Assembly: GCA_963732485.1 (NCBI GenBank)
Contig: CAVSZS010000003.1
Span: 278,087 to 342,086 of the forward strand
Direction of reading: 5' to 3'
Source: Candidatus Aminicenantes bacterium
GTDB taxonomy: Bacteria; Acidobacteriota; Aminicenantia; UBA2199
Length of the DNA: 64,000 bases
A program made the position numbers and the translations under genes. The notes under the pieces were generated by a model that saw only the letters and a program-made list of their open reading frames with translations, had not been told where the DNA came from and did no database searches. This document shows positions 15,715-63,823 of the stretch, piece by piece (within the stretch, counting starts at the first letter, position 1; every line of letters starts with the position of its first letter).

Positions 15715-16350
15715 TTATGAATCCTGTTTCAGCGCGTCGGCGACGATCCCGGCCATGACCGGGTTCAGGAATACGGCGAGGCTCTCGGCAATGCTAGCGG
15801 CGGAAAAGTCATAATAGGACTGCCCGTCTTTTTCGGAGACGCGAAAGCCGTCGCTGACATCCGCGGAGGCGCGGATCTCGATTCCGGCCGCGATCGTTGC
15901 GGCCAGGGCCTGGCGCAGCGCCTTGGCCAGCGCTTCAAGGCGGTCAGGGGGCAGGAGCAGCTCGATCCGCTCCTGGCGTTCGGGCGTCCAGTTGGCGACC
16001 AAAGCGACGATGGCGGCGGTGATCTCCTTGTCATGGAGGGCGGCGGCGGTCTTCTCCTTCAGCAGCGCGGCGAACAGGACCTCAAGCTGCTTCCTGACCT
16101 GCAGCAGCAGGTCACGGGACGCCTGCTTGAGGGACTCGCGGCCGGAGTGCTCCAACCGCTCCTGTTCCTGCCGGGCCTTGGCCAGCAGCGCGTCGGCCTG
16201 CTCCCGGGCGGCGGCCACGATGCCGTCGGCCTTCTCCCTGGCTTGCCGGAGCAGGGCGTCGCTTTCCCGGCGGGACTTGTCCACGCCGTCGCGATGGATG
16301 GTATCGATGAGTTCCTTCAGTTGCACGTCGGGGATGTCTTTGGCTTCCAT
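15715..16350 (-). CDS. atpE: V-type ATP synthase subunit E (peripheral stalk)
   Basis: 211 aa, highly charged Ala/Glu/Arg-rich coiled coil (LLRQAREKADGIVAAAREQADALLAKARQEQERLE). First gene of the operon. Confidence 0.65.
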   Translation of the reverse strand: MEAKDIPDVQLKELIDTIHRDGVDKSRRESDALLRQAREKADGIVAAAREQADALLAKARQEQERLEHSGRESLKQASRDLLLQVRKQLEVLFAALLKEKTAAALHDKEITAAIVALVANWTPERQERIELLLPPDRLEALAKALRQALAATIAAGIEIRASADVSDGFRVSEKDGQSYYDFSAASIAESLAVFLNPVMAGIVADALKQDS

Positions 16351-16407
16351 GACTGAATTTTAGGGGAAGCGGCGATTCCTGTCAACCCTGAGCTCGATGC
16401 CAAGATT

Positions 16408-16503
16408 GTGAAAAGTGATCAGTGAAAAGTGAAAGGTGAAGGCAATGGAACGAACGATCGCTTTACTGCTGTTTCATTTCACTTTTTACTTTTCACTATT
16501 CAC
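16408..16503. repeat. inverted heptamer-repeat element (GTGAAAA x5 arm / TTTTCAC arm around a ~30-nt core)
   Basis: Left arm GTGAAAAGTGATCAGTGAAAAGTGAAAGGTGAAGG (16408-16442). Right arm TCATTTCACTTTTTACTTTTCACTATTCAC (16474-16503) is its imperfect reverse complement. The right arm overlaps the last 5 codons and stop of the Fe-S gene, and the element sits upstream of atpE. Confidence 0.6.
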
Positions 16504-17634
16504 TTGTCTTTTAAAGATATCACTAATGAAATAAACAGACACGTCGAGGTTTTCTTTCAGTTGCATGTAACATCCCGGGCAGGAGGTGACCACGGCGGCG
16601 GCGCCCAGTTCGTCGAGCCGCGCCGATTTTTTATTCAGGATCTTTTTCGAAGTCGATGGGAAGCCCACCTTGAAGATGCCGCCGAAGCCGCAGCACAAGG
16701 CGGAGTCGTCGTCGCGAAAGCGCTCGCCGAACTGCTCCAGGAAATGGCGCGCCTCTTTTTGCAGCTTCAGCGATTTCAGGTTGTGGCAGGGGTCGTGATA
16801 CGTGAACGCTCCCTGGAAGCGATCGGCGAAGCGCGGGTCGATCGCGGCCGAGGAGCAGTGGCGGAACATGAAGTCGCCCAGCTCGAATACCTCGATCCCG
16901 GGCAGATCGTAGTATTTTCGGAAAGCCAGCACGCCGGTGGAGCATGGCGCGACGATGCGCTTGAAGCGGAATTTCCTGAACACGGCCGCGTTTTTCTTTT
17001 TCAGCGCGGCGAACTTCTCGCCCCAGCCCTGCGAGAGATAGGGGAAGCCGCAGCATTGCAGCCCCGGCGGGTAGAGGACGCTGAAGCCCTGCTTTTCCAG
17101 GAGCGTCTTGATGTCGATCGTGCGCTGCGGGTAGAAGTAGGTGAAGACGCAGCCCGGGAAGAGCAGAATGTCGTATTCCTTGCCCGGGTCGCCGCCGCTG
17201 ATCTTTTTCAGGTCGGCTTTTTGCATCGCGGGCAGGGAAAGCCTTCTCTTCAGCGGCGTGCGCGCCAGGAGGCGCGGCAGCCAGAGGACCCGGCGCAGGA
17301 TGAACTCCTGGTAGAAAAACAGGGCGGTCTTCTTCAGCCAGGGGATGCGCTTTCCCGCCGCGGCGTGGTTGCGCTGCTCGATCATCATGCGGGTGAACTC
17401 GACCCCCTGCGGGCAGGCGTGCTCGCAGCCGCCGCAGACCAGGCACTGGTAGAGCAGGGAGCGGTTGCGCGCGTTGGGCGCCAGGCGGCCGTCGGCCAGG
17501 GCCTTGGCCAGGTTGACCTTGCCGCGCGGCGAGTTCGGTTCCGTGAGCTCGGCCTGGTAGACCGGGCAGGCCGACTGGCAGGTGCCGCAGTCGGCGCAGA
17601 GCTTGGCGATCTCGCTGATGGTTTTTTCAGCCAT
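16486..17634 (-). CDS. (Fe-S)-binding oxidoreductase subunit with two 4Fe-4S ferredoxin motifs and two CCG domains (GlcF/GlpC/LutA-like)
   Basis: CADCGTCQSACPV and CLVCGGCEHACPQG clusters, then two CCG(F) cysteine-rich domains (LQCCGFPYL, LCCGFGGI ... TSCPGC). Confidence 0.7.
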   Translation of the reverse strand: MAEKTISEIAKLCADCGTCQSACPVYQAELTEPNSPRGKVNLAKALADGRLAPNARNRSLLYQCLVCGGCEHACPQGVEFTRMMIEQRNHAAAGKRIPWLKKTALFFYQEFILRRVLWLPRLLARTPLKRRLSLPAMQKADLKKISGGDPGKEYDILLFPGCVFTYFYPQRTIDIKTLLEKQGFSVLYPPGLQCCGFPYLSQGWGEKFAALKKKNAAVFRKFRFKRIVAPCSTGVLAFRKYYDLPGIEVFELGDFMFRHCSSAAIDPRFADRFQGAFTYHDPCHNLKSLKLQKEARHFLEQFGERFRDDDSALCCGFGGIFKVGFPSTSKKILNKKSARLDELGAAAVVTSCPGCYMQLKENLDVSVYFISDIFKRQVNSEK

Positions 17635-17767
17635 TGCCAGCCATTATAGCAGAAGCGGCCAGGGAGCCCAATTTCCGTTCTGCTTGCGCTGTGGGAAATT
17701 TTGGCTTACACTCGGTTCTGCGACGGAAATAAAAATCGCGATGGGACTCTGACGCGAGGATCGAGCC

Positions 17768-18875
17768 ATGGGAAAAGAATTCTGCCCGCGCTGCGGAAAA
17801 AAAATGGAGAAGCGCCGCCTGGAGGACCGGGACCGGGACTACTGCCCGGCCTGCCGCGCCGTGGCGCTACGAGAACCCGGTGCCGGCGACGGCGGTCGTG
17901 GTGCTCAACGAACGCCATGAGCTGCTGCTCGTGCGGCGCGCCGTGGAGCCGGCGCTGGGCAAGTGGTGCCTGCCCGGCGGCTTCCAGGAGACGGGCGAGA
18001 CCCCCGAACAGTGCGCCCTGCGCGAGCTGCGCGAGGAGACCGGGCTCAGTGGCCGCGTGGAGGAGTGGCTGGGCATGGAGATGAGCCTGAACCCCTTGGC
18101 TGGCGAGGTGCTGGTCGTCGGCTACCGCGTCCGCGCCGGCGGCGAAACGCCGCAAGCGGGCGATGACGCGTTGGCCGCGGCCTATTTCCCCCTGGGCGGA
18201 CTTCCCGAGCTGGCCTTCCGGAGCCACGCGCGCATCATCGAGCGCGCCGGCAGGCCGCTCCTGGCGCGGCTGGGTTTCCGCGACCTGCCGGGCGGCGCCT
18301 ACGTTGTCACCAGCAACGATCACGAGCGCGTGGCCCGCGAAGCCTGCCGCGGCGGCGCCCGTGTCGTCCAGTACCGCGAAAAAGACGCGCCCGCCGTGCG
18401 GCGGCTGGAGACGGCCCGCCGCATCCGCGGCTTCTGCCGCGAGAGCGGCACGCTGTTCATTGTCAACGACCAGCTCGACATCGCCATGCTCAGCGAAGCC
18501 GACGGCGTGCACCTTGGTCAGGACGACGTCGCCATCGCCGATGCCCGCCGGCTGCTGGGACCGGGGATGATCATCGGCATCTCCTGCTCGTCGCTGGCGG
18601 AAGCCGAAGACGCCGAGCGCCGCGGGGCCGATTACCTGGGGGTGGGCGCCGTCATCGCCACGCCGACCAAGGAAGGCTACCCGCTGGTGGGCCTGGACGG
18701 CCTGAGCCGCATCGCCGCCGCCGCCGCCGTCCCCGTCGTGGCCATCGGCGGCGTCAACCTGGGCAACATGGCCGCCATGAAAGCGGCCGGGGCGAAGTAC
18801 CCGGCCATGGTGCGCGAGTTCCAGGAAGATACGGCGGCGCGGGTGGTGGCGGTAAATCAGATTTACAAATCGTAG
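17768..18875 (+). CDS. thiE: Zn-ribbon NUDIX hydrolase domain fused to thiamine-phosphate synthase (ThiE); apparent +1 frameshift near 17855-17866
   Basis: ATG 17768 encodes MGKEFCPRCGKKMEKRRLEDRDRDYCPACRAV (a CxxC...CxxC ribbon). The reading frame then switches into the ORF encoding RYENPVPATAVVVLNERHELLLVRRAVEPALGKWCLPGGFQETGETPEQCALRELREETG (Nudix box), followed by a complete ThiE domain (HLGQDD..., GISCSSLAEAEDAERRGADYLGVGAVIATPTK). The downstream frame has no ATG before the Nudix fold. Confidence 0.55.
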
Positions 18876-30366: not shown

Positions 30367-31178
30367 GTGCGGTCCAGTGCCTCCCCTTCCCAGCGCAGAA
30401 AAATGAGGTACGACGCGCACAGCGTGACGGCGCCCGAAATGAGGCAATGGGCGAGCAGCGGCGCCGCGAGCGCACCTCCCTCCATGAATATGGCGCGGAA
30501 GGCCTTCAGGAACGGAGCCAGCGGGTTCAGCCAGGAGATGAGCGAGCGCATGGCGGGGGAGAGGCTTTCCAGCGCGTAGAAAACCGGCGTAACGAAAAGG
30601 AACAGGCGCGCCATGATGGCCCAGACATGCTCCACGTCGCGCGCGAAGCAAAAGGCGAGCGACAGGGCCAGCCCGACCCCCAGCACCAGGGCGAGGAATG
30701 ACAGCAGGATCGGGACGAACAGCAGTGCGGATTTCCATGAGTAAAATCCGTACGCCAGGCTGATCACGGTGCAGATCGCCAGTTCGATGGCGAATTTCCA
30801 GGCGTTGATCGAGATGGTGGCCAGCACGAGGTTTTCGCGCGGGATGGTGGAGTTCAGGGCGATGTCGCGGTTGTAGCTGATGACCTTGAGCAGGTACGAA
30901 GTGGCGGTGATGAAAAAATTCACCATGATGATGCCCGTCAGCAGGTAGAGCGGATAGCCCGGGATGCCGCGCCCGAAATGGCGGCTGAACACGAAGTACA
31001 TGGAGGCCAGCATGGCCGCGGTGCCGATCAGGCTCCACAAACCGCCCAGCAGCGAATGATAGTCGCTGGCCTTGATGTTGGCCCGCACCATTTCCAGCAG
31101 GATGGTGCGGTTGGCCGGACGGGCCAGCCGCCTGGCGCGGTTTGCGAGACGGGCGCGGAAGGAGAGCCCCGGGATCAT
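30363..31178 (-). CDS. wzm: ABC-2 type transporter permease, Wzm-type
   Basis: ORF trimmed to MIPGLSFRARLANRARRLARPANRTILLEMVRANIKASDY (ATG 31176-31178), followed by 6 TM helices. Canonical ABC-2 N-terminus. Confidence 0.75.
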   Translation of the reverse strand: MIPGLSFRARLANRARRLARPANRTILLEMVRANIKASDYHSLLGGLWSLIGTAAMLASMYFVFSRHFGRGIPGYPLYLLTGIIMVNFFITATSYLLKVISYNRDIALNSTIPRENLVLATISINAWKFAIELAICTVISLAYGFYSWKSALLFVPILLSFLALVLGVGLALSLAFCFARDVEHVWAIMARLFLFVTPVFYALESLSPAMRSLISWLNPLAPFLKAFRAIFMEGGALAAPLLAHCLISGAVTLCASYLIFLRWEGEALDRT

Positions 31179-32215
31179 GGCCCGGCCCCGCTGAAACCGG
31201 CGCGCGGTTTTTTTCGCGATCCCAGGCCGGCGCAGAAAAATCCCGCCCGCGAAGACGTTTCCAGGAGCAGCAAAACGGGCCAGTAGGCCAGGAAGCGGGC
31301 CGGCCAGCCGGTTTGCCAGGCGCGCCAGCACGACCAGTAGAGCGCGGCCGCCACGGAGCGCAGCGCCAGCCGCGCCAGGCCGGGGATGCTCGCCGCCTTC
31401 GGCTCCGGAGCGGCGCTGAGGCGCCAGGAGGCCTGGCCGCTGGCAAAGGCGATTTTTAGCGCCGCTCCCAGGCGGGGATCGTTGCGGTGGCGGATGCGCA
31501 CACCGGGCGCGTAATGGACCGCAATGCCGACGGCGCGCAGGCGGCGGGTGAACTCCGTGTCCTCGCCGCGGGCGAACGATTCGTCGAAGCCGCCGATCTG
31601 CCCGAACACGTCGCTGCGGAAGGCGGCGCCTCCCGCCGCTTCCAGGTCATGGTCGGTGCGGACCGCGGTGCCGGGCCGGGTGCGGCGCCACGAGACGCGG
31701 CGGCCCGTCGCCTCCCCGCGTGGGAGCAGGCGGCGGATCACGCTCGCCTCCTGGTAGGCGTGAAGCGCCCGGCCGAGGAAACCGCCGCCGGCCAGGACGA
31801 CGTGAAAGCGCAACACCCGGGCCTGCGGCTGCTCCGTGAAAAAGCCGCAGATCGCGCGCGCGTAGCCCGGCGGCAGCAGGTAGTCGTCGGCGACTATGGC
31901 CGTCAGCGCCGTGCAGCTGTGGCGGATGCCGGTGTTCCGTGCCGCCGCGATGCCCCGCTGCGGCTGGAAAACGTAGCGCCACCCCGGCCGCGAAGCGGTC
32001 AGCGAGCGCACCATCTCCGCCGTGCCGTCGGAGGATCCGTCGTCGACCACCACGAAATGCAGGGGCATTCCCGGGTCATCCAGGGCGAAAAGCGATTCCA
32101 GGCAGCCGCGCAGCAGTTCGCGGCGATCGCGGGTGAGCACGATGATGGTGAGCCCCCTGGAGGCACCATTCGTGTCGTGCGTGAAATCCTGGCCTGGCAG
32201 CGCCGATTTTGACAT
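31175..32215 (-). CDS. glycosyltransferase family 2
   Basis: LTIIVLTRDRRELLRGCLESLFALDD ... HFVVVDDGSSDGT ... and the DXD region IVADDYLL. Start trimmed to MSKSALPGQDF. Confidence 0.65.
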   Translation of the reverse strand: MSKSALPGQDFTHDTNGASRGLTIIVLTRDRRELLRGCLESLFALDDPGMPLHFVVVDDGSSDGTAEMVRSLTASRPGWRYVFQPQRGIAAARNTGIRHSCTALTAIVADDYLLPPGYARAICGFFTEQPQARVLRFHVVLAGGGFLGRALHAYQEASVIRRLLPRGEATGRRVSWRRTRPGTAVRTDHDLEAAGGAAFRSDVFGQIGGFDESFARGEDTEFTRRLRAVGIAVHYAPGVRIRHRNDPRLGAALKIAFASGQASWRLSAAPEPKAASIPGLARLALRSVAAALYWSCWRAWQTGWPARFLAYWPVLLLLETSSRAGFFCAGLGSRKKPRAGFSGAGP

Positions 32216-33986: not shown

Positions 33987-33997
33987 GATGGAAACAA

Positions 33998-34070
33998 TGG
34001 GCGATGCAGGATTCGAACCTGCGACTCCTACCGTGTGAAGGTAATACTCTAGCCGCTGAGTTAATCGCCC
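33998..34070 (-). tRNA. tRNA-Val (anticodon CAC)
   Basis: 73 nt: GGGCGAT-TA-ACTC-AGCGGCTAG-AGT-A-TTACC-TTCACAC-GGTAG-GAGTC-GCAGG-TTCGAAT-CCTGC-ATCGCCC-A. Acceptor, D, anticodon and T stems all pair. Anticodon loop TTCACAC, T-loop TTCGAAT, no encoded CCA. Confidence 0.85.
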
Positions 34071-34181
34071 AGAGCCGATATTATAAGATGAAAAGCGCTT
34101 GCGGTCAAGAGTTTCGCCGAGGCCGAACTATCCGCCGGAGCAAAGAGGTTCGGGGAGAAGCCTGCTCCGCCCCGGCGCCGG

Positions 34182-34275: not shown

Positions 34276-36003
34276 TTGAAGAATGCAGTAAAGAAGTTTA
34301 TCAGCGGCCATTTTCCGAGAAAAGTTCCCGATAATATCGGCATTGCCATCCAGACGGGAACGCTGGGCCTGCTGGCCGGGCTCTCCTCCGTCCTGTTCAT
34401 GTGGATGGTCAACCTTGTGTATTCGCGGACCTTCCTGAGCTTCGCCGCGGGCTCGCCGCGGGCCTTCATTCTTTCCAGCCTGCTGACCATCGTCGTCACT
34501 TCCGCTGCCGTGGGATTCCTGCTCAACGTATTCAGCCCCGAGGCGGCCGGCAGCGGCATCCCCCAGGTCAAATCGGCCTACTGGAAGGATCTCGGCTACA
34601 TGAAGATCCGGCCGGTCCTGGTGAAGTTCGTGGCCGGCGTATTAAGCATCGGCGGCGGCAACAGCCTCGGCCGCGAAGGCCCCTCGGTGTTCATCGGCAG
34701 CGGCGTCGCCGCCAATGCCGACGCCATGTTCGGCACGCCCCTGCGGGGACGGAGGGGTGCGGCGGTCATCGGCGCCTCGGCCGGGCTGGCCGCAGCCTTC
34801 AACGCCCCGCTTGCCGCCATCGCCTTCGTAATCGAGGAGATTGTCGGCGACCTGAACAACCGCTATCTCGGCCGCGTCGTCCTCTCCTCGGTGATCGGTG
34901 CCTTCGTCGTTTATGCCCTGATCGGCCGCCAACCTGCATTCGTCCTCCCCCCCATCGAGAACATTTCCTGGCTTCATTACCTAATCGTTCCCGTGGTCGC
35001 CCTGGCCGCCGCCCTGGCCGGCGTCGTCTTTCAGCGCGCTACCCTGCGCTGGCGCCTGCGCCTGCGCAAGCAGAAGCGCATCCCCGCCTGGTTGATGCCC
35101 GTCCTGGGCGGCCTGCTGACCTGGGTCATCGGCTGCACGGTGTTCCTCGCCGTAGGCAAGATCGGCGTCTTCGGGCTGGGCTACCAGGATCTTTCCAGCG
35201 CCCTGGGCAATCACTTCGAATGGAAGGTCGCCGGCGTTATGGTCGTGGCCAAGCTGCTGGCCATGATTATTGGCTACAGTTTCGGCGGCTGCGGCGGCAT
35301 CTTCGCCCCCCTGCTGTTCGTCGGCGGCATGGCCGGCTATTTCCTGGGTGGGCTGGCACGGCTATGGATTCCCCTCACCCCCGCCGACCAGATCGTGCTG
35401 GGTGTCGTGGGTATGAGCGCCTGCCTGGGGGCAGCCGTCCGGGCGCCGCTGACCTCGATGCTGATCGTCTTCGAGATGACGCACCAGTTCACCCTGGTGC
35501 CCAGCCTGCTGCTGGGAACGATCATCAGCCAGTGGGCGGCGCGCTATGCGGGCAAGCTTAATTTCTACGATGCCCTGCTGGTGCAGGATGGCCACGAGCT
35601 GCACAAGATCCATCCCCCGGTCGATTTGCAGGGCTGGCAGAACCTGCCGGTCTCGGCCATCGCCAACCCGGCTCCGGTCATGCTGGGCAGCCTCGGCGGG
35701 GACGAGATGCGCGAGAAGCTGGACCACTTTCCCTTTAACAGCTTTCCGCTGCTGGAGAAGGGCAAGGTAAGGGGAATCGTGACCCGGCAGGCCATGGAGA
35801 AGGCCGGGCTCAGCGGCGGCCCTCCCGAGGTCCTGAAGGCCGCCTTTTGCTATCCCGAGCAGACGGTGCGCGAGATCGGCAAGAAATTTCTGGAATCCTC
35901 CGCCTATGTGCTGATCGTCGTGGATAGGGATACGAAGGCCGTTAGGGGAATCGTCACGCTCCACGACCTGATCCGCGCCCAGGCCGCGATTTTAAATGGC
36001 TGA
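34276..36003 (+). CDS. ClC family chloride channel / H+-Cl- antiporter with C-terminal CBS domains
   Basis: 575 aa. ClC motifs GSGIP, GREGP and GIFAP/GxFxP. C-terminal tandem CBS-like region (PLLEKGKVRGIVTRQ...VRGIVTLHDLI). The 5' end may use a TTG/GTG start. Confidence 0.85.
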   Translation: MKNAVKKFISGHFPRKVPDNIGIAIQTGTLGLLAGLSSVLFMWMVNLVYSRTFLSFAAGSPRAFILSSLLTIVVTSAAVGFLLNVFSPEAAGSGIPQVKSAYWKDLGYMKIRPVLVKFVAGVLSIGGGNSLGREGPSVFIGSGVAANADAMFGTPLRGRRGAAVIGASAGLAAAFNAPLAAIAFVIEEIVGDLNNRYLGRVVLSSVIGAFVVYALIGRQPAFVLPPIENISWLHYLIVPVVALAAALAGVVFQRATLRWRLRLRKQKRIPAWLMPVLGGLLTWVIGCTVFLAVGKIGVFGLGYQDLSSALGNHFEWKVAGVMVVAKLLAMIIGYSFGGCGGIFAPLLFVGGMAGYFLGGLARLWIPLTPADQIVLGVVGMSACLGAAVRAPLTSMLIVFEMTHQFTLVPSLLLGTIISQWAARYAGKLNFYDALLVQDGHELHKIHPPVDLQGWQNLPVSAIANPAPVMLGSLGGDEMREKLDHFPFNSFPLLEKGKVRGIVTRQAMEKAGLSGGPPEVLKAAFCYPEQTVREIGKKFLESSAYVLIVVDRDTKAVRGIVTLHDLIRAQAAILNG

Positions 36004-36312
36004 ATATTGCTGAGCGCTGATCGCCGCCAGGGTTCGGCCACGAACAGCTCGGGTTGACTTTTTTTTCGTGGCAAGTATCATGATAGCCAGCATCGGAAAA
36101 TGGGTGCGGTGGCATGGACTTTTGCTGCCGCAGGGCACGTCGGGGTGGTCGGGCCGCCATCCGTTAATACGCTGATCATGCCATGCGCATGATTTTGGCG
36201 TAATCATGGAGGTGGTGATGAATGGTTTGCTTGGTCTGGGAAAAGAACGTTGCCCGGAGATCGGATGTGGGATGGCGATTTTTCCATTATTCCCCGGCAA
36301 AAAGAAAAATTC

Positions 36313-37782
36313 ATGAACTGGAACAAGGAGATTCTGAAGAATTTCACCAAGAAAATGATCGCCAACCATCATTTTGTCGTGGTGTCATCCCGTGAACCCT
36401 ATATCCACTCCTATTCCAACCAGGGAATCGAATATATCACGCCGGCCAGCGGCATGGCAACCGCCATCATGCCCATCATGACCGCTTGCGGCGGCGTCTG
36501 GATCGCCCACGGCTCCGGCGAGGCCGATCGGGACGTCGTGGATGAGCAAGATCATATTGCTGTTCCCCCCGCTGACCCGAAATACACACTGCGCCGGATT
36601 TGGCTTTCCAAGGAGGAAGAGGAAGGCTTCTATTACGGATATGCCAATGAAGGGCTATGGCCTCTTAGCCATATAGTATATTCCCGGCCGACGTTCCGGG
36701 AAAAAGACTGGGAGATGTACTGCCACGTCAATGAAAAATTCTGCGAAGCCGTGCTCCAGGAGCTGCACGGAAAACCCGGGTTTGTTTTCATTCAGGATTA
36801 TCATTTTGCTATGCTCCCCCGCATGATCAAAGCAAAGCGTCCCGATGTCGTGGTGGCCCAATTCTGGCACATCCCCTGGCCCAACCGTGAGGCATTCCGC
36901 GTTTGCCCCCACGGTAACGAGATCCTGGACGGCCTTCTGGGAAATGATATCCTGGGCTTCCATCTGCGCTACCATTGCCTGAATTTCCTGGACACCATCA
37001 ATCATAACATCGAGGCCATTGTCAACCATGAAAGGTTCTCGGTAACACGGCATGGGCGGGAAAGCCTGATCAGAGCCTTTCCTATCAGCATTGATTTTGA
37101 TGCGATTACAGAGATCGCCCGCAGCAAGGAAACCGATCGGCGAGTGGCTGAAATCCGCAGCGATTTTCATGTGCGCGGCAAGTTGCTTGGCGTGGGTGTC
37201 GACCGCATCGACTATACCAAGGGCATCATCGAGCGGTTCGCCGCCATCGACCGCTTTTTGGAAAAATGTCCTGCCTACATCGGAAAATTCGTTTTTATGC
37301 AGTTGGGCCCGATCTCACGGATCCATATTCCCAGATACCGGGAATACAATGATGCCGTCTATCATGTCATGCTCGAGATCAATGACAAATGGAGGATCAA
37401 GGACTGGCAGCCGATCATCATGAAAAAGATCCATTTGTCGCTGGGCGAGGTGGTGGCGTATTTCCGGGCAGCTGAGCTGTGCATCGTGAGTTCGATCCAT
37501 GACGGGATGAACCTGGTGGCCAAGGAGTTCGTCGCGGCGCGGGTCGACCATGACGGCGTTTTGCTGCTCAGCCAGTTTACCGGGGCAGCCAGAGAGTTGC
37601 CCGAAGCGTTGATGGTCAATCCGCTGGCAGTCGATCAGTTCGCCGATCAAATCCGCAACGGCCTGGAAATGCCAGCCGCTGAAAGAAAACGTTGTATGAT
37701 CGCCATGCGCAACAATGTCGAGCGCAACAATGTCTTTCGCTGGGCGGGGCATATTCTCGAAGAGATGAAAAAAAGGAGGTAA
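36313..37782 (+). CDS. GT20-family alpha-glucosyl-phosphate synthase (OtsA/GgpS-like paralog)
   Basis: ORF trimmed to MNWNKEILKNF. HFVVVSSREPY...GLWPLSHIV...FIQDYHFAMLP...FWHIPWP...GVDRIDYTKGI are GT20 retaining-GT motifs. N-terminal region resembles GgpS (HREPY) more than canonical OtsA. Confidence 0.65.
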   Translation: MNWNKEILKNFTKKMIANHHFVVVSSREPYIHSYSNQGIEYITPASGMATAIMPIMTACGGVWIAHGSGEADRDVVDEQDHIAVPPADPKYTLRRIWLSKEEEEGFYYGYANEGLWPLSHIVYSRPTFREKDWEMYCHVNEKFCEAVLQELHGKPGFVFIQDYHFAMLPRMIKAKRPDVVVAQFWHIPWPNREAFRVCPHGNEILDGLLGNDILGFHLRYHCLNFLDTINHNIEAIVNHERFSVTRHGRESLIRAFPISIDFDAITEIARSKETDRRVAEIRSDFHVRGKLLGVGVDRIDYTKGIIERFAAIDRFLEKCPAYIGKFVFMQLGPISRIHIPRYREYNDAVYHVMLEINDKWRIKDWQPIIMKKIHLSLGEVVAYFRAAELCIVSSIHDGMNLVAKEFVAARVDHDGVLLLSQFTGAARELPEALMVNPLAVDQFADQIRNGLEMPAAERKRCMIAMRNNVERNNVFRWAGHILEEMKKRR

Positions 37783-37785
37783 GGC

Positions 37786-38430
37786 GTGTCCCTGTTTTAC
37801 TTTAAAACGCGTTTAAACCTGGTGGAAATTCTGGGAATCAGGGTGAGCAATGTGCCCGACCTGCTCGAGCAGATCCGCCAGGTGCCGGGCTCTTCCATCT
37901 ATCACCATACGCACCGCTTTCTGCAGCAGCACAATTATCTTTGCCCCGAGCCGCCCAATGATTTCGCTTTCTGGATCAGCAATACCCTGAGGCTGAATGA
38001 CCTGGGCGAGCAGCTGGCCAGCGTCGATACGATCCGGTTTGTCAGGATCAACGACTTGCGCGATGCCTTAAGCGGCATCATCGAAAAGTACTTGCAGCGA
38101 AAATCCGATAAGATGGCCTTTTGCCAGGAAGGCGAAGAATTCCACTTTATGTCCTGCCGGACCTTTGTTTTTGCGACCGACCATCAGGCGGCCGACACTG
38201 CGGAATTCATCCAAGCGCTACGCACCATCAGCACCAACTCGCTGTACTACCATATATTCGAGTCCCGGCTGCGACTGGGCCAGGTAGGCAATGATTTTTC
38301 CCTCTGGTTCGAAGCCAACGGCCGCCGCCAGCTCGCCGCCGAGATCGCCAAGCTGGACCCGTATACCATCACCCTCGAGGGCCTGCGAAAAAAAATCATC
38401 CAAATCGTGGAGAAACATGCTGCAAATTAA
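37786..38430 (+). CDS. hypothetical protein (unknown function, embedded in trehalose/glucoside synthesis cluster)
   Basis: 214 aa, GTG start 4 nt after the GT20 stop. No recognisable motif. Soluble, lower-GC codon usage like its neighbours. Confidence 0.4.
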   Translation: MSLFYFKTRLNLVEILGIRVSNVPDLLEQIRQVPGSSIYHHTHRFLQQHNYLCPEPPNDFAFWISNTLRLNDLGEQLASVDTIRFVRINDLRDALSGIIEKYLQRKSDKMAFCQEGEEFHFMSCRTFVFATDHQAADTAEFIQALRTISTNSLYYHIFESRLRLGQVGNDFSLWFEANGRRQLAAEIAKLDPYTITLEGLRKKIIQIVEKHAAN

Positions 38431-39640
38431 AGATTATACCGATATCATCGGGCAAAGCGTGATTGATGAGCTCTTGGTTCTGTCCAAGCACCTGCAGGGG
38501 AAAAGGATCCAGAACATCAATTCCACCGCGGTCGGCGGCGGCGTGGCGGAGATCCTGAACCGTATGCTGCCCCTGCTGCAGGAATTGGGTGTCGACGCCC
38601 GCTGGGACGTGATCCGCGGCGACGAACGGTTCTTCGCCATTACCAAGAAAATGCACAATGCCCTGCACGGGGTGAACGAAACCATCACTGCCGAGGACCT
38701 GGAATATTTTTTGGAGACCAATGAACGGAATGTCGCGGCCATGGATTTGAACTACGATATCCATTTCATCCATGACCCGCAGCCCATCGGCTTGATCCGC
38801 GAAAGACCCCGGGTCGGAGGCAAATGGATCTGGCGCTGCCACATCGATTTCACCGCTCCGGATCAAAAGCTGTGGGAGTTTTTAAAAGGATTTATTGAAA
38901 TGTATGATGCGGCCGTGTTTTCAGCTCCTGCGTTCGCCAGAAGCTTGCCCATTCGCCAGGCCTTAATCTCGCCTTCGATCGATCCGCTCAGCGACAAGAA
39001 CAAGGACCTGCCCCAGGAATTTATTGATTCGGTTTTTCAAAAGTACGGGATCGACCAGAATAGGCCGATCGTCTGCCAGATCTCGAGGTTCGACTACCTG
39101 AAGGATCCGCTGGGCGTAATCGAAGCGTACAAGCTTGCCAAGGAGCATGTGGACTGTCAACTGGTGCTGGCCGGGGGCGGGGCGGTGGATGACCCGGAGG
39201 GTATGCGCGTGCTCGCCGACGTCCGCCAGGCCGCGGAAAATGACCCGGATATTTTTGTCCTGTTCCTGCCGCCTGCCGCCGATCTGGAAATCAACGCCTT
39301 GCAGCGGGGATCGAGCATCGTTTTACAGAAGTCGCTGAAGGAGGGCTTCGGACTGACCGTGGCCGAGGCGCTATGGAAATCCAAGCCCGTGATCGCGACG
39401 GCGGTGGGTGGCATCCAGCTGCAGATCGCCCACAAGTATTCCGGCATCCTGACCCATTCCATCGAGGGTACCGGCTTCTGGATCAAGCAGCTTCTGAACG
39501 AACCGGAATACGCCACGAAATTGGGCGTGAACGGCCGTGAACACATCAAGAACAATTACCTGATCTTCAGGCATTTGCGCGATTACCTGCTGCTTTTCCT
39601 TTCCGTTTTCGAAACCAAGGATGTCGTTTATTATGGATGA
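38417..39640 (+). CDS. treT: trehalose glycosyltransferring synthase TreT (GT4)
   Basis: 407 aa. INSTAVGGGVAEIL, WRCHIDFTAPD, SPSIDPLSDKN and KEGFGLTVAEALWKSKPVIATAVGGI are collinear with remembered archaeal TreT sequences (VNSTSFGGGVAEIL / WRCHIDLS / PPSIDPLSEKN / REGFGLTVTEAMWKGKPVIGRAVGGI). Recognised from memory, not searched. Confidence 0.7.
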   Translation: MLQIKDYTDIIGQSVIDELLVLSKHLQGKRIQNINSTAVGGGVAEILNRMLPLLQELGVDARWDVIRGDERFFAITKKMHNALHGVNETITAEDLEYFLETNERNVAAMDLNYDIHFIHDPQPIGLIRERPRVGGKWIWRCHIDFTAPDQKLWEFLKGFIEMYDAAVFSAPAFARSLPIRQALISPSIDPLSDKNKDLPQEFIDSVFQKYGIDQNRPIVCQISRFDYLKDPLGVIEAYKLAKEHVDCQLVLAGGGAVDDPEGMRVLADVRQAAENDPDIFVLFLPPAADLEINALQRGSSIVLQKSLKEGFGLTVAEALWKSKPVIATAVGGIQLQIAHKYSGILTHSIEGTGFWIKQLLNEPEYATKLGVNGREHIKNNYLIFRHLRDYLLLFLSVFETKDVVYYG

Positions 39641-39738
39641 ATGCCTGCGGAATAGTACTGCCGCCAGGGTCGCCCGGGAGCAAGGGGCTCCATCCTCCAT
39701 CCTGAAGAAGATTCTGCACCAGGGATTGGCGAAATAAG

Positions 39739-41949
39739 ATGGCCAGACTGCTGATCGTTTCCAATCGCCTGCCCGTGACCATTTCCCGGGAGACTGGTGA
39801 ATATCATCTTCAGCAGAGCGCCGGAGGGCTGGCCACGGGATTGAGATCCTTCCTGAAGCGCCAGGAAAAACTCCCGGAATTCAATCTGAAATATCTCTGG
39901 GTCGGCTGGCCCGGCATCTCCATCCATGCCCGGGAAGCAAAAGAAACGGAAGTCCTGAAGAAGAAGCTGCACAAGCTGAATTGCTGGCCCGTTTTCCTTT
40001 CCGAGAGCGAAATGGAAAATTTTTATTACGGTTTTTGCAACAAGACCATCTGGCCCCTCTTCCACTATTTTCCGTCCTATGTCGAATATGAAAAAGACTT
40101 TTGGCTCGATTTCATCAAGGTAAACCGCATCTTTTGCGACGCCCTGTTGGAGTTCGTCCGCGAAGACGATGTCATCTGGATCCATGACTATCACCTGATG
40201 CTGCTGCCGCAGATGATTCGTGCAAAATTCCCCGGGATCAAGATCGGTTTCTTCCTGCATATCCCCTTCCCCACCTTCGAGATCTTCCGCCTGCTGCCGG
40301 GTAAATGGCGCCGGGAGATCCTGTACGGCATCCTGGGCGCGGATCTGGTCGGGTTTCACACCAACGACTATACCCAATACTTTTTGCGCTGCGCGCTGCG
40401 CATCCTGGGATTGGAACACGAGATGGGCAGGATCATGCTCGAGGACCGTCTGGTCATGGTCGACACCTTCCCCATGGGCATCGATTTCCAATCCTTCCAT
40501 CGGGCCGTGAGGGAAAAAGCGGTGAAAAAAGAGAGGGCCCGGCTCAAGAAGGAATTGAAAAAAACAAAGACCATCCTCTCGATCGACCGGCTGGATTACT
40601 CCAAAGGCATCCTCAACCGCCTGCAGGGCTTCGAACTTTTCCTGGAGCAGAACCCCGGCTGGCTGGAAAAGGCGCAGCTGGTCATGGTCGTGGTCCCTTC
40701 GCGGGTCGGGGTCACCCACTATGCGCGCACCAAGAAACAGATCGACGAGGCGGTTGGCAAGATCAACGGCAAATACGCCACGTTGACCTGGACGCCGATC
40801 TTATACCAGTTCAGGTCTTTGGCTTTCCCGTTGCTGGCCGCGCTTTACTCCCTGTGCGACGTCGCCCTGGTCACGCCCCTGCGCGACGGCATGAACCTGG
40901 TCGCCAAGGAATATGTCGCCAGCAAGTCCGTGGGCGCCGGTGTCCTGATCCTGAGCGAGAATGCCGGCGCCGTCGAGGAGCTGGGAGAAGCCATCGTCAT
41001 CAACCCCTTCTATGTCGAAGAGATCGCCCGGGCCATCCAGGAGGCACTGACCATTCCGGAGGATGAGCAGCTGAAGCGGCTGAAAGCCATGCAGTTCAGG
41101 CTGCAGCGCTACGATGTGTTCCGCTGGGCGGCAGATTTCCTGCACCACCTGGACTCCAGCCGCGAGGTTCAGAAAAAAGTGGAAGTGCGCATGCTTGGCG
41201 GCAGCCGGGAACGGCTGCTGGCGGAGTTTCGCCAGGCTGGCAAGCGGCTGGTCTTCCTGGATTATGACGGGACGTTGGTTCCGATCGTGAAGCACTATTC
41301 CCAGGCCGCCCCGGATCAGGAAATTTTACGACTCCTCGGGATTCTGGCCGCCGACAGGCGCAACCAGCTCGTGATCGTCACCGGCCGTGACCGCAAAACC
41401 ATTTCCGAGTGGCTTTGGATTGAGAACTGCGGCTTCATCGCCGAGCACGGAGCCTGGATCAAGGAAAGCGGCGGAGATTGGACCCGGATGAAGGCCTTGG
41501 ACGCGGAATGGAAAGGACAGATCCTGCCCGCGCTGGAGATTTATACCGATCGGCTTCCCGGATCCTTTGTCGAGGAAAAGGAATTTTCCCTGACCTGGCA
41601 TTTTCGCAACGCCGACCCGGAATTAGGAATATTGCGAGCCAAGGAGCTGATGGATTATCTCATCAGCTTCACCGCCAATCAGGATCTTCAGGTACTGCAA
41701 GGAAAAAAAGTGGTCGAAATCCGCAACGCCGGGATCAACAAGGGGCTGGCGGCGGCACACTGGCTGGCAAAAGAAGAGTTCGAATTCATCCTGGCGGCCG
41801 GCGATGACTGGACGGATGAGGACCTCTTCAAGGTCCTGCCGGAAACGGCGTACTCTATCAAAGTCGGTATCTCGTCTTCTTTGGCCAGGTTCAATGTGAT
41901 CAACTATAATGAGATCCGGAAGCTGTTGGAGCAGTTGAACAAAAAATAA
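39739..41949 (+). CDS. otsAB: bifunctional trehalose-6-phosphate synthase / trehalose-6-phosphate phosphatase (OtsA-OtsB fusion)
   Basis: 736 aa. N-terminal GT20 domain [13 protein letters not shown]...SAGGLATGL...IWPLFHY...[12 protein letters not shown]-terminal HAD phosphatase [14 protein letters not shown]...[10 protein letters not shown]. Confidence 0.85.
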
Positions 41950-41950
41950 C

Positions 41951-43003
41951 ATGTGGAAAAATTATTCGCCCTTGTTCGCGCCGTTGGCCTTTGTGGCCGG
42001 TTCTTTGATCCTTGGCTTGCTGGGCAAAAGGTTCATCCTGAAAAAAATCGAGAAATTCACCCGCAGGACCAGCTGGCGGGGCGATGACATCCTGGTCGCC
42101 GCCCTGGAGAGGTGGATCGTCTGGTGGTTCCTCTTTGCCGGCGCTTACCTGGCCACCATGAGCATCCCCGTGAAAGCGAATCTTCTGAAGCTGATCCACC
42201 ACGTCATCCTGATCCTGATCCTCTTGAGCCTGACGGTTTTTGCTGCCAATATGAGCGTGAATTTCGTCAATCTGTATTCTGAAAACCTGAAGGAGTCCAT
42301 CCCCAGGACGACCATCTTCGCCAACCTGACCCGGGTATTCGTTTTTTTGATCGGCATTTTGATCATCTTCAATACCTTGGGGATCTCCATCGCCCCCATT
42401 CTCACGGGTCTGGGAATCGGGGGGCTGGCCGTCGCCCTGGCCATGCAGGAAACCCTGGCCAACCTTTTTTCCGGCCTGCAGATCATTGCTTCGAAGCAGG
42501 TCCGGCCGGGGGACTATATTCGCCTGGAAAGCGGTGAAGAGGGATTCATCGTCGATATCAACTGGCGCAACACGACGGTGCGCGAGCTCGGCAATAACGT
42601 GAACATTATCCCCAACTCCCGCATTGCCAAGACCATCGTCAAGAATTATTCCCTTCCGGAAAAGGCCATGTCCGTGCTGATCCAGGTGGGGGTCGACTAT
42701 GACAGCGATCTGGAAAAGGTCGAATCGGCGACCCGGGAGGTGGCACGAGAGGTGATGCGCGAGATCCCGGGCGGTGTGGGCGATTTCGAGCCTTTCATCC
42801 GCTACCACACCTTCGGCGACTCCTCCATTGATTTTACGGTCATCCTGCGTGTGAACGAATTCGTGGACCAATATGTTGTCAAACACGAATTCATCAAGCG
42901 CTTGCACAAGCGCTATCAATCCGCGGGGATCACCATACCGTTCCCCATCCGCACGGTCCATTTCGCTGGCGGCATGCCGTCGCCATTTCCCAAAGCGAAA
43001 TGA
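41951..43003 (+). CDS. mechanosensitive ion channel, MscS family
   Basis: 350 aa. 3 TM helices, then pore helix GIGGLAVALAMQETLANLFSGLQI and the MscS beta domain GDYIRLESGEEGFIVDINWRNTTVRELGNNVNIIPNSRI. Confidence 0.8.
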   Translation: MWKNYSPLFAPLAFVAGSLILGLLGKRFILKKIEKFTRRTSWRGDDILVAALERWIVWWFLFAGAYLATMSIPVKANLLKLIHHVILILILLSLTVFAANMSVNFVNLYSENLKESIPRTTIFANLTRVFVFLIGILIIFNTLGISIAPILTGLGIGGLAVALAMQETLANLFSGLQIIASKQVRPGDYIRLESGEEGFIVDINWRNTTVRELGNNVNIIPNSRIAKTIVKNYSLPEKAMSVLIQVGVDYDSDLEKVESATREVAREVMREIPGGVGDFEPFIRYHTFGDSSIDFTVILRVNEFVDQYVVKHEFIKRLHKRYQSAGITIPFPIRTVHFAGGMPSPFPKAK

Positions 43004-55643: not shown

Positions 55644-56267
55644 TCAGGCCAGCACGATTTCCACAAAATCGTGATAGTGGTGGTGGTGAATGGTCGTGTT
55701 AAGGACCGGAATGACGGCATTGAGTGAAACGAAAAGATCGTGGTATTCCTTTTTGGACATCCAATGGGTGATTTCATTGAATCCGTCCGAATCCACACGG
55801 GTCATTGCTTTTCCCAGCAGATGGGAGAAGGTGCTTTTTTTGGCGGCAAGGGCAACGAACGTGGGCTCAATGATGACAATTTTTTTGGCGAATTTTCCCG
55901 CAATTTGAAACAGGCGATGTATTTCGGGCATTTGCAGGTGATGCAAAATGTCGCAGAGCAGAATGATATCCGCCGGGCCATAGTTTTCTTCCTTAAGGAT
56001 ATCCCCCACGCGGATGTTGCGGTTTTTTTTTTGCCCAAAGCTGACAAATTTATCGTTCAGGTCAATGCCCGAATACGCACAATCCGCGTGGAGATATTTC
56101 TTCATGCGGCCGAACCCGCAGGCCGGTTCAAAAACACTCATGCCATGGCCCACGATTTCTTTCAGGATCTTCAGCTTGTTTAAATAGAGAAAATGGATGC
56201 CGAGTTCGTACAGCAGGGGGTGGCGGTAGAAAATGGATTGCCGACGGGGCGGTTGTACCATGGACAT
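55644..56267 (-). CDS. class I SAM-dependent methyltransferase (low-GC gene)
   Basis: 207 aa. Motif I VFEPACGFGRM and the post-I acidic residue region SGIDLND. About 47% GC versus ~65% for neighbours. Confidence 0.55.
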   Translation of the reverse strand: MSMVQPPRRQSIFYRHPLLYELGIHFLYLNKLKILKEIVGHGMSVFEPACGFGRMKKYLHADCAYSGIDLNDKFVSFGQKKNRNIRVGDILKEENYGPADIILLCDILHHLQMPEIHRLFQIAGKFAKKIVIIEPTFVALAAKKSTFSHLLGKAMTRVDSDGFNEITHWMSKKEYHDLFVSLNAVIPVLNTTIHHHHYHDFVEIVLA

Positions 56268-63341: not shown

Positions 63342-63514
63342 CGCTCCCTCCTTCTTGAAAACGCACGTTTCTCGATCGTTGAACACCGGGGATTGCCGTA
63401 CGCGTTACCGGGCGCGAAAGAAAATCTTTTTTGGTCCGCGCTAGGGAACGCAAATTTGCGTTCCCTGCGTTGCGCATGTATATTATGGTTTTTTGTTTAT
63501 ACAGGAGATTTGGA

Positions 63515-63823
63515 ATGCCGGCTGAAAGAGTTGTGATCGTCGCGAATTTTCTCCAGGGCTGCGTGCCGCTGTTGGGATTGTTCGCCTATTTTCCGCAATG
63601 GAAAAAAATAGTGGCCAACAGGTCCAGCAAGGACATTTCCCTGACTTCCTGGCTGGTCTGGCTGCTCTCTTCGATAATCGCCATCTTCTATGCGGTCATT
63701 CAATACAGGATCACCGGCAAGGGCACGGCGCTGATCTTTTCCTCCGTGCTGGCGCTTGTATTTGTGTTCATAACCGTATGTTTGATCGCGCTATACAGAA
63801 AAGGCGATAGGTCAAGGACTTGA
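63515..63823 (+). CDS. SemiSWEET / PQ-loop sugar transporter (3-TM)
   Basis: MPAERVVIVANFLQGCVPLLGLFAYFPQWKKIVANRSSKDIS has a PQ motif in TM1 followed by the basic/DIS loop, as in bacterial SemiSWEETs. About 100 aa, 3 TM. Confidence 0.5.
   Translation: MPAERVVIVANFLQGCVPLLGLFAYFPQWKKIVANRSSKDISLTSWLVWLLSSIIAIFYAVIQYRITGKGTALIFSSVLALVFVFITVCLIALYRKGDRSRT

Follow-up and report, generated by a model that had tools for sequence, protein, structure and literature searches.

A trehalose operon of Candidatus Aminicenantes with a candidate cation riboswitch in its leader and a probable stepwise assembly

Introduction

This report concerns a group of trehalose genes in a stretch of 64,000 nucleotides from Candidatus Aminicenantes bacterium (contig CAVSZS010000003.1, positions 278,087 to 342,086 of the forward strand), which is referred to as the window. 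At positions 36010-43003 of the window, immediately downstream of a gene for a ClC H+/Cl- exchanger, genes for trehalose synthesis and for a mechanosensitive channel of the MscS type lie on one strand in a block of lowered guanine plus cytosine (GC) content. An earlier reading, made from the sequence alone, had proposed that this block is an osmoadaptation island acquired horizontally as a unit. The locus raises the question of how such a set of genes is controlled and how it came together at this position. We consider it probable that the genes of the block form a single operon on one strand, which serves to accumulate trehalose in response to salt and to let out solutes in an emergency, that a cation riboswitch is present in its leader and that its contents were assembled stepwise.

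Explanations of how bacteria perceive salt and turn on the synthesis of compatible solutes still rely mainly on indirect cues, among them turgor, K+ and glutamate. The riboswitch class of interest here is nhaA-I, an experimentally validated Li+-I class with rare Na+-selective variants designated Na+-II (White et al. 2022, PMC9646797). Its members are on-switches, thought to act mostly via the accessibility of the ribosome-binding site, and a nucleotide at position 54 has been described as the one that sets the specificity for Li+ or Na+ (PMC9646797). Of 944 nhaA-I representatives, 16 precede otsA, 5 precede glycosyl transferase genes and 3 precede mscS, and the link of the class to osmotic stress and trehalose was offered as speculation (PMC9646797).

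Results

The leader of the operon

The following features were found on the operon strand between the ClC gene and the first gene of the block, a stand-alone GT20 gene:

36054-36081, + strand, sigma-70-like promoter TTGACT-16 nt-TATCAT (consensus scan, 10/12 matches)
36102-36162, + strand, aptamer with the stems P1 and P2, belonging to riboswitch class nhaA-I (Li+-I / Na+-II type; Rfam RF03057)
36153-36216, + strand, putative expression platform, in which a helix enclosing a hairpin can form between the 3' strand of P2 (36153-36164) and AUGGAGGUGGU (36206-36216)
36218-36316, + strand, upstream open reading frame (uORF) of 32 codons, MNGLLGLGKERCPEIGCGMAIFPLFPGKKKNS, with a TGA that overlaps the GT20 ATG as ATGA

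The aptamer is located about 20 nt 3' of the promoter and 5' of the first gene. It had been overlooked in the sequence-only reading and was found here with RF03057, against which it scores 50.8 bits (gathering score 37, E 4e-7) over model positions 1-55 of 55; this places it in the family. The hairpins P1 and P2 are present with the conserved core GGGU...GCAGG...UGGUCGGGCCGCCA. A covariance model, R1, which was built here from 11 operon-linked copies of the aptamer, scores the window copy at 61.3 bits. In these 11 copies 94.5% of the cells are paired, compensatory changes are seen in 10 of the 15 pairs, and none of 500 shuffles matches the observed covariation.

The comparison set consisted of 80 genome loci collected with a DUF5752 seed, 80 metagenome loci collected with a GT20 seed, and a few contigs obtained via single homologues; these fetched loci and contigs carry L-numbers. 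The 133 loci with a DUF5752 gene, spread over more than ten phyla, are the base for the cluster counts given below. Host names among them include Aminicenantes, Acidobacteria, Omnitrophota, Elusimicrobia, Bacteroidota, Planctomycetota, Kryptoniota, Nitrospirota, Methanosaeta and others. Of the 133 loci, 24 have the aptamer 5' of cluster genes; these loci belong to several phyla, the strand is always that of the operon, and E is <=1e-9 in nearly all cases. The gene that follows it is MscS, GT20, a trehalose-6-phosphate phosphatase (T6PP) gene, a ClC-like gene or a gene for a small membrane protein.

In the minimum-free-energy fold of the window leader, P1 is formed and the 3' strand of P2 is paired with AUGGAGGUGGU, which is the Shine-Dalgarno region of the uORF. 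The same alternative helix is present in the leader folds of L169, L098, L101 and L088. A uORF of similar length stops on the GT20 start codon in L169 (ATGA) and in L103 (TTGA). The arrangement suggests a translational on-switch, in which a cation-stabilised P2 would free the ribosome-binding site and translation of the uORF would be coupled to that of GT20. Li+ or Na+ is the putative ligand of the window aptamer. The promoter is retained at the same position after ClC in L001, L002 and L004, the related genomes that share the backbone of the window, of which L001 is the closest relative.

A 7-bp stem with UUUU behind it, at about 36176-36198, was considered as an intrinsic terminator downstream of the aptamer. 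This reading was put aside, and sequestration of the ribosome-binding site preferred; the terminator was not called by the scan, and the fold puts this hairpin inside the long-range helix.

Some other leaders of the comparison set deserve mention. A small membrane protein of about 115-140 amino acids, with the motif RY.DI[RK]Y..GET.D..PAT.KHW and assigned to no Pfam family, is encoded right behind the nhaA-I riboswitch in several loci (L101:1195-1540, L090:~590-930, L088:~4380-4720, L065:6411-6842 and L169:14591-14953). The uORF of the window and a 19-codon uORF in L098 and L099 may be remnants of this gene, which is usual after the riboswitch. In L029 a c-di-AMP riboswitch (621-765, 79 bits) lies about 300 nt 3' of an nhaA-I aptamer (268-327), with both upstream of a sensor-GT20 gene, and this could be a two-input arrangement, cation and c-di-AMP, on a trehalose operon. 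In L044 (616-2682) an nhaA-I riboswitch is followed by two Band_7 (HflK/HflC-like) genes and then by MscS. In L070 (11873-11925) and L039 (11348-11400) a weaker nhaA-I-like motif separates TreT from a gene for a distant member of the ClC family, which has 27% identity to the ClC of the window; this suggests riboswitch control of some ClC homologues as well.

The genes of the operon

The genes in and beside the block are arranged as follows:

33997-34071, minus strand, tRNA-Val
34276-36003, + strand, ClC H+/Cl- exchanger with a CBS domain (PF00654, PF00571)
36313-37782, + strand, stand-alone GT20, putative OtsA-type trehalose-6-phosphate synthase, "type a" (PF00982, E 5e-112)
37786-38430, + strand, 214-residue protein of the DUF5752/OrfY family (PF19027, E 1e-64)
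38417-39640, + strand, TreT, NDP-glucose + glucose -> trehalose (PF21269 and PF00534)
39621-39737, + strand, 5' stub of a T6PP gene, with homology up to about 39675 and a frame open until 1 nt before the TPSP ATG
39739-41949, + strand, TPSP, trehalose-6-phosphate synthase and phosphatase in a single fused protein (TPS/TPP; NCBIfam NF011071, PF00982, PF02358)
41951-43003, + strand, MscS-type mechanosensitive channel (PF21088, PF00924, PF21082)

The gene calls of the sequence-only reading for ClC, GT20, the 214-residue protein, TreT, the fused TPS/TPP and MscS were all confirmed by domain searches, and its view that they form a coherent module for synthesis and release of a compatible solute is supported. 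The N-terminal part of TreT matches PF21269 with E 9e-55, and the full length matches PDB 6ZJ4, which we take to be the Thermoproteus TreT, with E 6e-120 and the Pyrococcus TreT 2X6Q with E 2e-94. The protein thus belongs to TreT, and it does not reach the Thermococcales-specific NCBIfam model (349.5 vs a cut-off of 775). TPSP scores 1006.5 bits on NF011071 vs a cut-off of 634, as a bifunctional TPSP should, and its catalytic residues are invariant. The three domains of MscS are all above cut-off and the protein is below every NCBIfam equivalog cut-off, so that it is a generic member of the MscS family.

The genes are closely spaced. The start of TreT overlaps the OrfY stop by 14 nt, MscS starts 1 nt past the TPSP stop, and in the gap between TreT and TPSP the scan called neither a terminator nor a promoter. 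ClC is a backbone neighbour outside the low-GC block and is syntenic in L001, L002 and L004. Its presence beside the block, pointed out in the sequence-only reading, recurs near the cluster in other phyla (17 of 133 loci).

Among the other loci the pair OrfY-TreT is almost invariant. TreT lies directly 3' of OrfY in 123 of the 124 loci where the sequence allows this to be seen, and the OrfY stop overlaps the TreT start in 79 of these 123. The companions of the pair are either a stand-alone OtsA-type GT20 and a trehalose-phosphatase or else a fused TPSP: GT20 of type a is present in 97 loci, a stand-alone TPP-like gene in 93 of 133 and a fused TPSP in 14, and MscS is nearby in 57. The adjacency of OrfY and TreT, with an overlap of 4 nt, is found also in Pyrobaculum ferrireducens and in a metagenome-assembled genome with an OrfY 77% identical to that of Thermoproteus tenax. 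In Pyrobaculum a MscS gene is located divergently upstream of the pair.

OrfY and its fusions

The 214-residue protein had been correctly called as a gene in the sequence-only reading and described there as unknown. It is a member of DUF5752, with 218 bits on PF19027 vs a cut-off of 23, and a homologue of T. tenax OrfY. The profile of the DUF5752 family matches the OrfY structure of T. tenax (PDB 4CSO) over its full length with E 3.6e-27, and a Foldseek search with the AlphaFold model (pLDDT 83) returned only 4CSO, with E 4e-12. The N-terminal half of the protein aligns with the C-terminal half (E 2e-6), an internal duplication that makes it a domain of two repeats. Conservation of the bacterial OrfY is high: the identity is at least 50% across phyla, and 54 columns are invariant among 21 diverse sequences. 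A search of the literature on DUF5752, OrfY and 4CSO gave nothing relevant.

A profile search of 1.84 billion representative proteins gave 988 members of DUF5752. Among the top 150 of these, at least 14 are MscS proteins, with the membrane part and the beta-domain, in which DUF5752 replaces the C-terminal domain of MscS; one is a fusion of trehalose-phosphatase with DUF5752, and three or four are fusions of maltokinase-like proteins with DUF5752. The fusion of MscS with DUF5752, which is met in many lineages, is in frame at the DNA level in 20 fetched loci, with the gene order GT20, T6PP, MscS::DUF5752, TreT. Because OrfY is constantly coupled to TreT and repeatedly fused to three other trehalose-linked proteins, it is most likely a regulatory or sensor module rather than an enzyme.

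In P0333, P0328 and P0344, which are high-GC proteins, a maltokinase-like kinase of the Mak/Pep2 type is fused to DUF5752. The maltokinase fusions link OrfY also to the trehalose-to-glucan route, TreS-Pep2-GlgE.

The stand-alone GT20

In the sequence-only reading the additional GT20 was taken as a hint of a second glucoside. The stand-alone protein is covered by PF00982 over residues 3-472 of 473, and its best matches among solved structures are all OtsA/TPS. In an alignment with E. coli OtsA, all catalytic, UDP-binding and glucose-6-phosphate-phosphate-binding residues are invariant in both GT20 copies of the window; the residues checked, which we take to be those of OtsA in E. coli numbering, are R9, G22, Y76, W85, D130, H154, R262, K267, R300, D361 and E369. 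The protein scores 384.5 bits on the OtsA model TIGR02400, below the cut-off of 564.85, and 447.9 bits on the TPSP model, also below the equivalog cut-off. On the GgpS model TIGR02398 it scores 275.8 bits, less than on either of these models and below the cut-off of 569. It thus represents a divergent subfamily, and the term OtsA-type describes its putative function rather than a curated membership. It is under purifying selection, with dN/dS (the ratio of nonsynonymous to synonymous divergence) of 0.10 vs L004. The metagenome scan gave no GT20 closer than 66% identity.

The partner phosphatases sampled from orthologous loci (L036, L010 and L026) score 139-154 bits on TIGR00685 vs a cut-off of 68 and are thus T6PP. 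GT20 of type a and TPSP are mutually exclusive in 132 of the 133 loci, and the window is the only locus with both. In the window the phosphatase partner of GT20 is the phosphatase domain of TPSP, and the T6PP stub remains. On these grounds (the retained OtsA residues, the lower GgpS score, the pairing with T6PP, the exclusivity with TPSP and the stub) the proposal of a second glucoside is not upheld. The readings of GT20 as GgpS, as a VldE-like pseudo-glycosyltransferase or as non-catalytic were rejected on the scores and the conserved residues. The window probably has two synthases because an incoming TPSP-MscS pair replaced the phosphatase of a GT20-OrfY-TreT-T6PP arrangement. The extra GT20 is then most likely a redundancy left by replacement of a module.

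In loci of the Omnitrophota type, the type-a GT20 has an N-terminal extension of about 260 residues, in which a signal-anchor helix and an extracytoplasmic domain are joined by a further transmembrane helix and a HAMP-like linker (L059:1467-2303, L053:916-1752, L040:3394-4251, L051:1039-1902 and L030:4093-4902). These proteins are membrane-anchored sensors fused to trehalose-6-phosphate synthase; the GT20 of the window is without the extension.

Base composition of the block

The GC content of the whole window is 62.2%. The sequence-only reading had estimated a lower GC content for 36010-43003 from short samples, and this is borne out: the block has 54.8% and the remainder 63.1%, and all 1-kb bins of 36001-43000 have 0.53-0.56 GC, while the neighbouring bins have 0.60-0.65. 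GC at third codon positions (GC3) is 0.68-0.77 in the five genes of the block vs 0.84 in ClC, 0.90 in LepB, and 0.83 and 0.90 for the two genes beyond LepB, one of which is EF-P. A GC3 of 0.77 or less is also found in about a quarter of the remaining open reading frames of the window, so that the dip is not unique in degree. The base-composition-normalised tetranucleotide signature of the block is the second lowest of 58 7-kb windows, with r=0.90 in a range of 0.87-0.97, and is not a clear outlier. The compositional deviation expected in the sequence-only reading was thus found in GC and GC3 and not clearly in the tetranucleotide signature; the latter is equivocal and was not used as evidence for transfer. 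The dip is real and contiguous, but moderate.

The GC content of OrfY-TreT follows that of the host over 87 loci (slope 0.88, r=0.93). In other hosts with flanking GC of at least 0.58 the pair has mostly 0.60-0.67 GC and a mean deficit of -0.024. The pair of the window, with -0.083, is the largest GC outlier of the 87 loci. Because this deficit is about three times that typical for the same gene pair in high-GC hosts, the low GC exceeds what the genes themselves impose and is best explained by imported DNA.

Two genes with a GC content still below that of the block are found elsewhere in the window, a methyltransferase-like gene at 55644-56267 (- strand, GC 0.48) and a gene for a PQ-loop protein at 63431-63823 (+ strand, GC 0.49). 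They may be separate foreign insertions.

History of the locus

The window, L001, L002 and L004 have a common backbone of tRNA-Val, ClC and the promoter, followed beyond the locus by LepB, DUF8575, EF-P and a peptidase of family M28. In all four genomes the slot between ClC and LepB holds the locus, with the following contents:

Window: GT20 intact; OrfY-TreT present; TPSP-MscS present; riboswitch present
L004: GT20 intact; OrfY-TreT present; TPSP-MscS absent; riboswitch absent
L001: last ~65 nt only of GT20, with a nonsense change; OrfY-TreT present; TPSP-MscS present; riboswitch absent
L002: first ~24 and last ~35 codons only of GT20; OrfY-TreT present; TPSP-MscS absent; riboswitch absent

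The shared slot and the remnants of GT20 indicate that the locus and its GT20-OrfY-TreT content predate these lineages.

The nucleotide identity of the window to L001 is 88-92% for the backbone, 77-82% for ClC, 81-86% for OrfY-TreT and 94-97% for TPSP-MscS. The synonymous divergence (dS) vs L001 is 0.24-0.28 for LepB and EF-P; OrfY and TreT have values of 0.70-0.73, and TPSP has 0.15. OrfY-TreT is more, and TPSP-MscS less, diverged from L001 than the backbone, and no fewer than two separate exchanges are required to account for this. The claim of horizontal acquisition as a unit in the sequence-only reading can accordingly be divided. Imported DNA is supported by the GC deficit and the strata of dS; a single unit is contradicted by the core in the same slot of L001, L002 and L004, by the GT20 remnants and by the two strata. 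Of the features of a genomic island that were looked for, deviant composition was found; absence from the same site in relatives, mobility genes in the flanks of the window and one shared history were not. The tRNA-Val gene does lie about 2 kb upstream, as that reading had remarked, but as a landmark of integration it fails, being conserved backbone in all the relatives with ClC in between.

The closest nucleotide relatives of the GT20-OrfY-TreT genes of the window are L169 and L170, with 85.8% identity. The order in L169 is riboswitch, uORF, GT20, OrfY, TreT, T6PP, SNF transporter, a second riboswitch, small membrane protein and Na+/Ca2+ exchanger. The block of L169 and L170 is flanked by a tyrosine integrase with AbiEii and by a serine resolvase with a HTH/Gp49 toxin-antitoxin pair (L169:6153-7471 and 16280-17793) and lies beside arsenic-resistance genes; it looks like a mobile "salt island". 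Homology of the window to L169 stops at 39675, after which TPSP follows. The stub behind TreT begins with MSFIMDECLR in the window, compared with MLFIMDECLR at the start of T6PP in L169.

A tight TPSP-MscS pair with 78-85% protein identity is found at another locus in L084-L086, behind a gene for a Na+/Ca2+ exchanger, and the homology to the window covers the two open reading frames only. No riboswitch was detected beside these pairs with Rfam and R1. In L084 and L085, Band_7 pairs adjoin the locus with the Na/Ca exchanger, TPSP and MscS.

In our reading the site is ancestral to the clade and the present alleles were imported from relatives of lower GC. An ancestral GT20-OrfY-TreT-T6PP cluster would have been present between ClC and LepB; its OrfY-TreT alleles would then have been swapped for a diverged copy of lower GC, and a mobile TPSP-MscS pair would have replaced the stand-alone phosphatase.

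Some observations concern the relatives and the sampling. The ClC gene of L001 (8108-9836) is split in two pieces that are 77-82% identical to the ClC of the window, with a backbone of about 90%; it could be a pseudogene, an error of long-read assembly or part of an exchanged segment. The database labels of the closest relatives L004, L002 and L021 are in conflict ("Patescibacteria group", "Chrysiogenia bacterium" and "Candidatus Aminicenantes"). To judge by the genes and their neighbours the lineage is Aminicenantes-like; one or more of the labels are probably wrong. Contig L168, 97% identical, is 1957 bp long and stops short of the leader, and an exact look-up of the TPSP of the window gave no recorded match. 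A tRNA-Pro of 92 nt called by ARAGORN at 31103-31194 of the window, with no Rfam tRNA detection at the gathering threshold, is probably a false positive.

Discussion

Proposed mechanism

What the genes are, that the aptamer is present, that it can pair otherwise in silico and which patterns the comparison gives has been shown; on these results the following model can be built. Transcription would start at the promoter conserved in the relatives, and the leader would fold into the nhaA-I class aptamer. With ligand absent, the 3' strand of P2 would pair with the ribosome-binding site of the uORF and translation would be off. At high cytoplasmic Na+ or Li+, P2 would form, the ribosome-binding site would be freed and the uORF would be translated. 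The uORF stop and the GT20 start codon overlap (ATGA), which may then let translation pass into the OtsA-type GT20 and on to the downstream genes. Trehalose could be made by two routes. In one, GT20 or the TPS domain would form trehalose-6-phosphate, which the TPP domain of TPSP would dephosphorylate; in the other, TreT would make trehalose directly from NDP-glucose and glucose. MscS would vent solutes upon osmotic down-shock, and OrfY would be an obligate partner of TreT, most likely as a regulatory or sensor domain.

Comparison with known systems

The window leader resembles the Li+-I/Na+-II riboswitches in that its aptamer is over the Rfam threshold and its architecture is that of an on-switch acting on the accessibility of the ribosome-binding site. 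It differs in that most members control nhaA and that a uORF ending on the downstream start codon is not described in PMC9646797.

The pair of OrfY and TreT and its order correspond to treT-orfY of T. tenax, and OrfY is homologous, as shown by the profile and Foldseek matches given above. However, the OrfY of the window is only about 27% identical to the archaeal protein, which lacks many His, Glu and Asp residues that are invariant in the bacterial family, and the operon around the pair of the window is larger, with GT20, TPSP and MscS as further genes and with a riboswitch. Kouril and colleagues are said to have reported in 2008 that treT-orfY is an operon in T. tenax and that the TreT pathway is unidirectional.

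A second T. tenax operon, msc-gt-tpsp, has a fused TPSP in one operon with a GT4 glycosyltransferase and a mechanosensitive channel, and synthesis under stress with a release valve was proposed for it (Zaparty et al. 2013, PMC3634074). The same components and logic are met in the window. The glycosyltransferase of T. tenax is, however, PimA-like and activates TPSP by forming a complex with it, whereas the GT4 of the window is a bona fide TreT homologue; its channel is a transmembrane-only protein of 197 residues, whereas the MscS of the window is full and has 350 residues; and the gene order differs. No riboswitch was reported for that operon, only archaeal promoter elements (PMC3634074), and it has no stand-alone GT20.

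With otsBA of E. coli the window shares the chemistry of a GT20 synthase and a HAD phosphatase, with the OtsA active-site residues kept in both GT20 proteins, but the identity to OtsA is 29% for the stand-alone GT20 and 37% for the TPS domain. No TreT, OrfY or MscS partner was found in the fetched otsBA region of E. coli. Control of the E. coli genes is by RpoS and osmotic stress, and they are not known to be under a riboswitch. The glucosylglycerol pathway of GgpS and GgpP is alike in its GT20-family synthase and phosphorylated acceptor; it is unlike in that the GT20 of the window is far below the GgpS cut-off and that the phosphatases of the orthologous loci are T6PP, not GgpP.

The chemistry of otsA/otsB, the archaeal treT-orfY pair, the msc-gt-tpsp operon of T. 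tenax and the nhaA-I riboswitch with its otsA association are thus already known kinds. To the extent searched, what is new is that all of these are united in a single operon, how widely the five-component module is spread among uncultured phyla, the putative expression platform coupled through a uORF, the fusions of OrfY and the stepwise assembly at a fixed locus.

Alternative explanations

Several points weigh against the operon model as described. The fold of the window leader is not exceptional vs shuffled sequence (z = -1.56). The peptide sequence of the uORF is not conserved, and the 19-codon uORF of L098 and L099 stops about 130 nt 5' of GT20, so that coupling is not universal. With Rfam and R1 no riboswitch was found at the promoter of L001, L002 or L004, so that the core operon can do without it. 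Among the nhaA-I members that have been characterised, Li+ is preferred, with a dissociation constant (KD) of about 30 mM, and Na+ is about tenfold weaker; moreover, the known Na+ variants use terminators, while the window leader would use sequestration of the ribosome-binding site (PMC9646797). Co-transcription from GT20 to MscS is something that we infer only. The modest fold score, the lack of a riboswitch in the three closest relatives that share the promoter, and the resemblance of the uORF to a remnant of the small membrane-protein gene could mean that the aptamer is a non-functional passenger or insertion relic in an operon run by the promoter and protein regulators. We regard this as unlikely, because the aptamer is intact and well over the Rfam threshold, the alternative helix, like the uORF that stops on the GT20 start codon, is seen again in independent loci, and the motif precedes the cluster in several phyla. 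As for OrfY, the depositors of 4CSO named the molecule "ORFY protein, transcription factor", and a small protein encoded within the operon that it possibly controls would suit a DNA-binding transcription factor acting on that operon rather than a partner of TreT and MscS or a sensor. This identification seems unlikely to us: OrfY has no match to a Pfam DNA-binding domain, its conservation across phyla is unusual, its stop overlaps the TreT start in most loci with the pair, and in-frame fusions join it to the beta-domain of MscS (in at least 14 cluster representatives and 20 loci), as well as to trehalose-phosphatase and maltokinase-like proteins.

The origin of the block can likewise be explained in other ways. 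The whole 7-kb block could be one horizontally acquired island, perhaps targeted to tRNA-Val, with the extra GT20 making a second glucoside such as glucosylglycerol. The dip in GC and GC3 is real and larger than in other high-GC hosts, and a closely related cluster lies between recombinase genes in L169. Against this stand the promoter, OrfY-TreT and GT20 remnants in the same ClC-LepB slot of the relatives, the two divergence strata vs L001, and flanks without mobility genes in which tRNA-Val is conserved backbone, together with the evidence that GT20 is of the OtsA type and its orthologues are paired with T6PP and elsewhere exclusive with TPSP. This explanation is highly improbable as a whole, and its "as a unit" part is already largely refuted. 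The opposite explanation, that there was no transfer and that low GC is intrinsic to conserved proteins rich in K/E/I/F/Y and to weakly expressed stress genes inherited vertically, draws on the low GC at first and second codon positions of the block, which is seen likewise in EF-P, on the same dip in the relative L001, on a tetranucleotide signature that is no clear outlier and on amino-acid identities that resemble those of the flanks. It is nevertheless very unlikely. The same gene pair attains 0.62-0.67 GC in other high-GC hosts, GC3 is depressed too, and the dS values for OrfY-TreT, TPSP and the backbone are incompatible with one vertical history.

Conclusions

In the operon model favoured here, a validated class of cation riboswitch lies directly before a trehalose operon, which makes the locus a concrete, cloneable test case for the otsA association of nhaA-I. 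The comparison defines a trehalose module of five components (GT20, T6PP or TPSP, OrfY, TreT and MscS) in more than ten mostly uncultured phyla. The history of the locus illustrates that an apparent island can be an old locus with contents that were swapped repeatedly. For OrfY/DUF5752, a family with a solved structure and no known role, the fusions to MscS, trehalose-phosphatase and maltokinase-like proteins give a first functional lead. As a tentative possibility, OrfY may be not a transcription factor but a sensor or regulator of trehalose homeostasis that docks on TreT and MscS and responds to a signal such as trehalose, trehalose-6-phosphate or NDP-glucose; with a Na+-reading riboswitch and the uORF, it would complete a circuit without protein regulators, and this circuit would be widespread in uncultured phyla. 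If this is true, solute synthesis and the release valve would answer the same signal, and ion sensing, compatible-solute synthesis and venting would be joined in one circuit.

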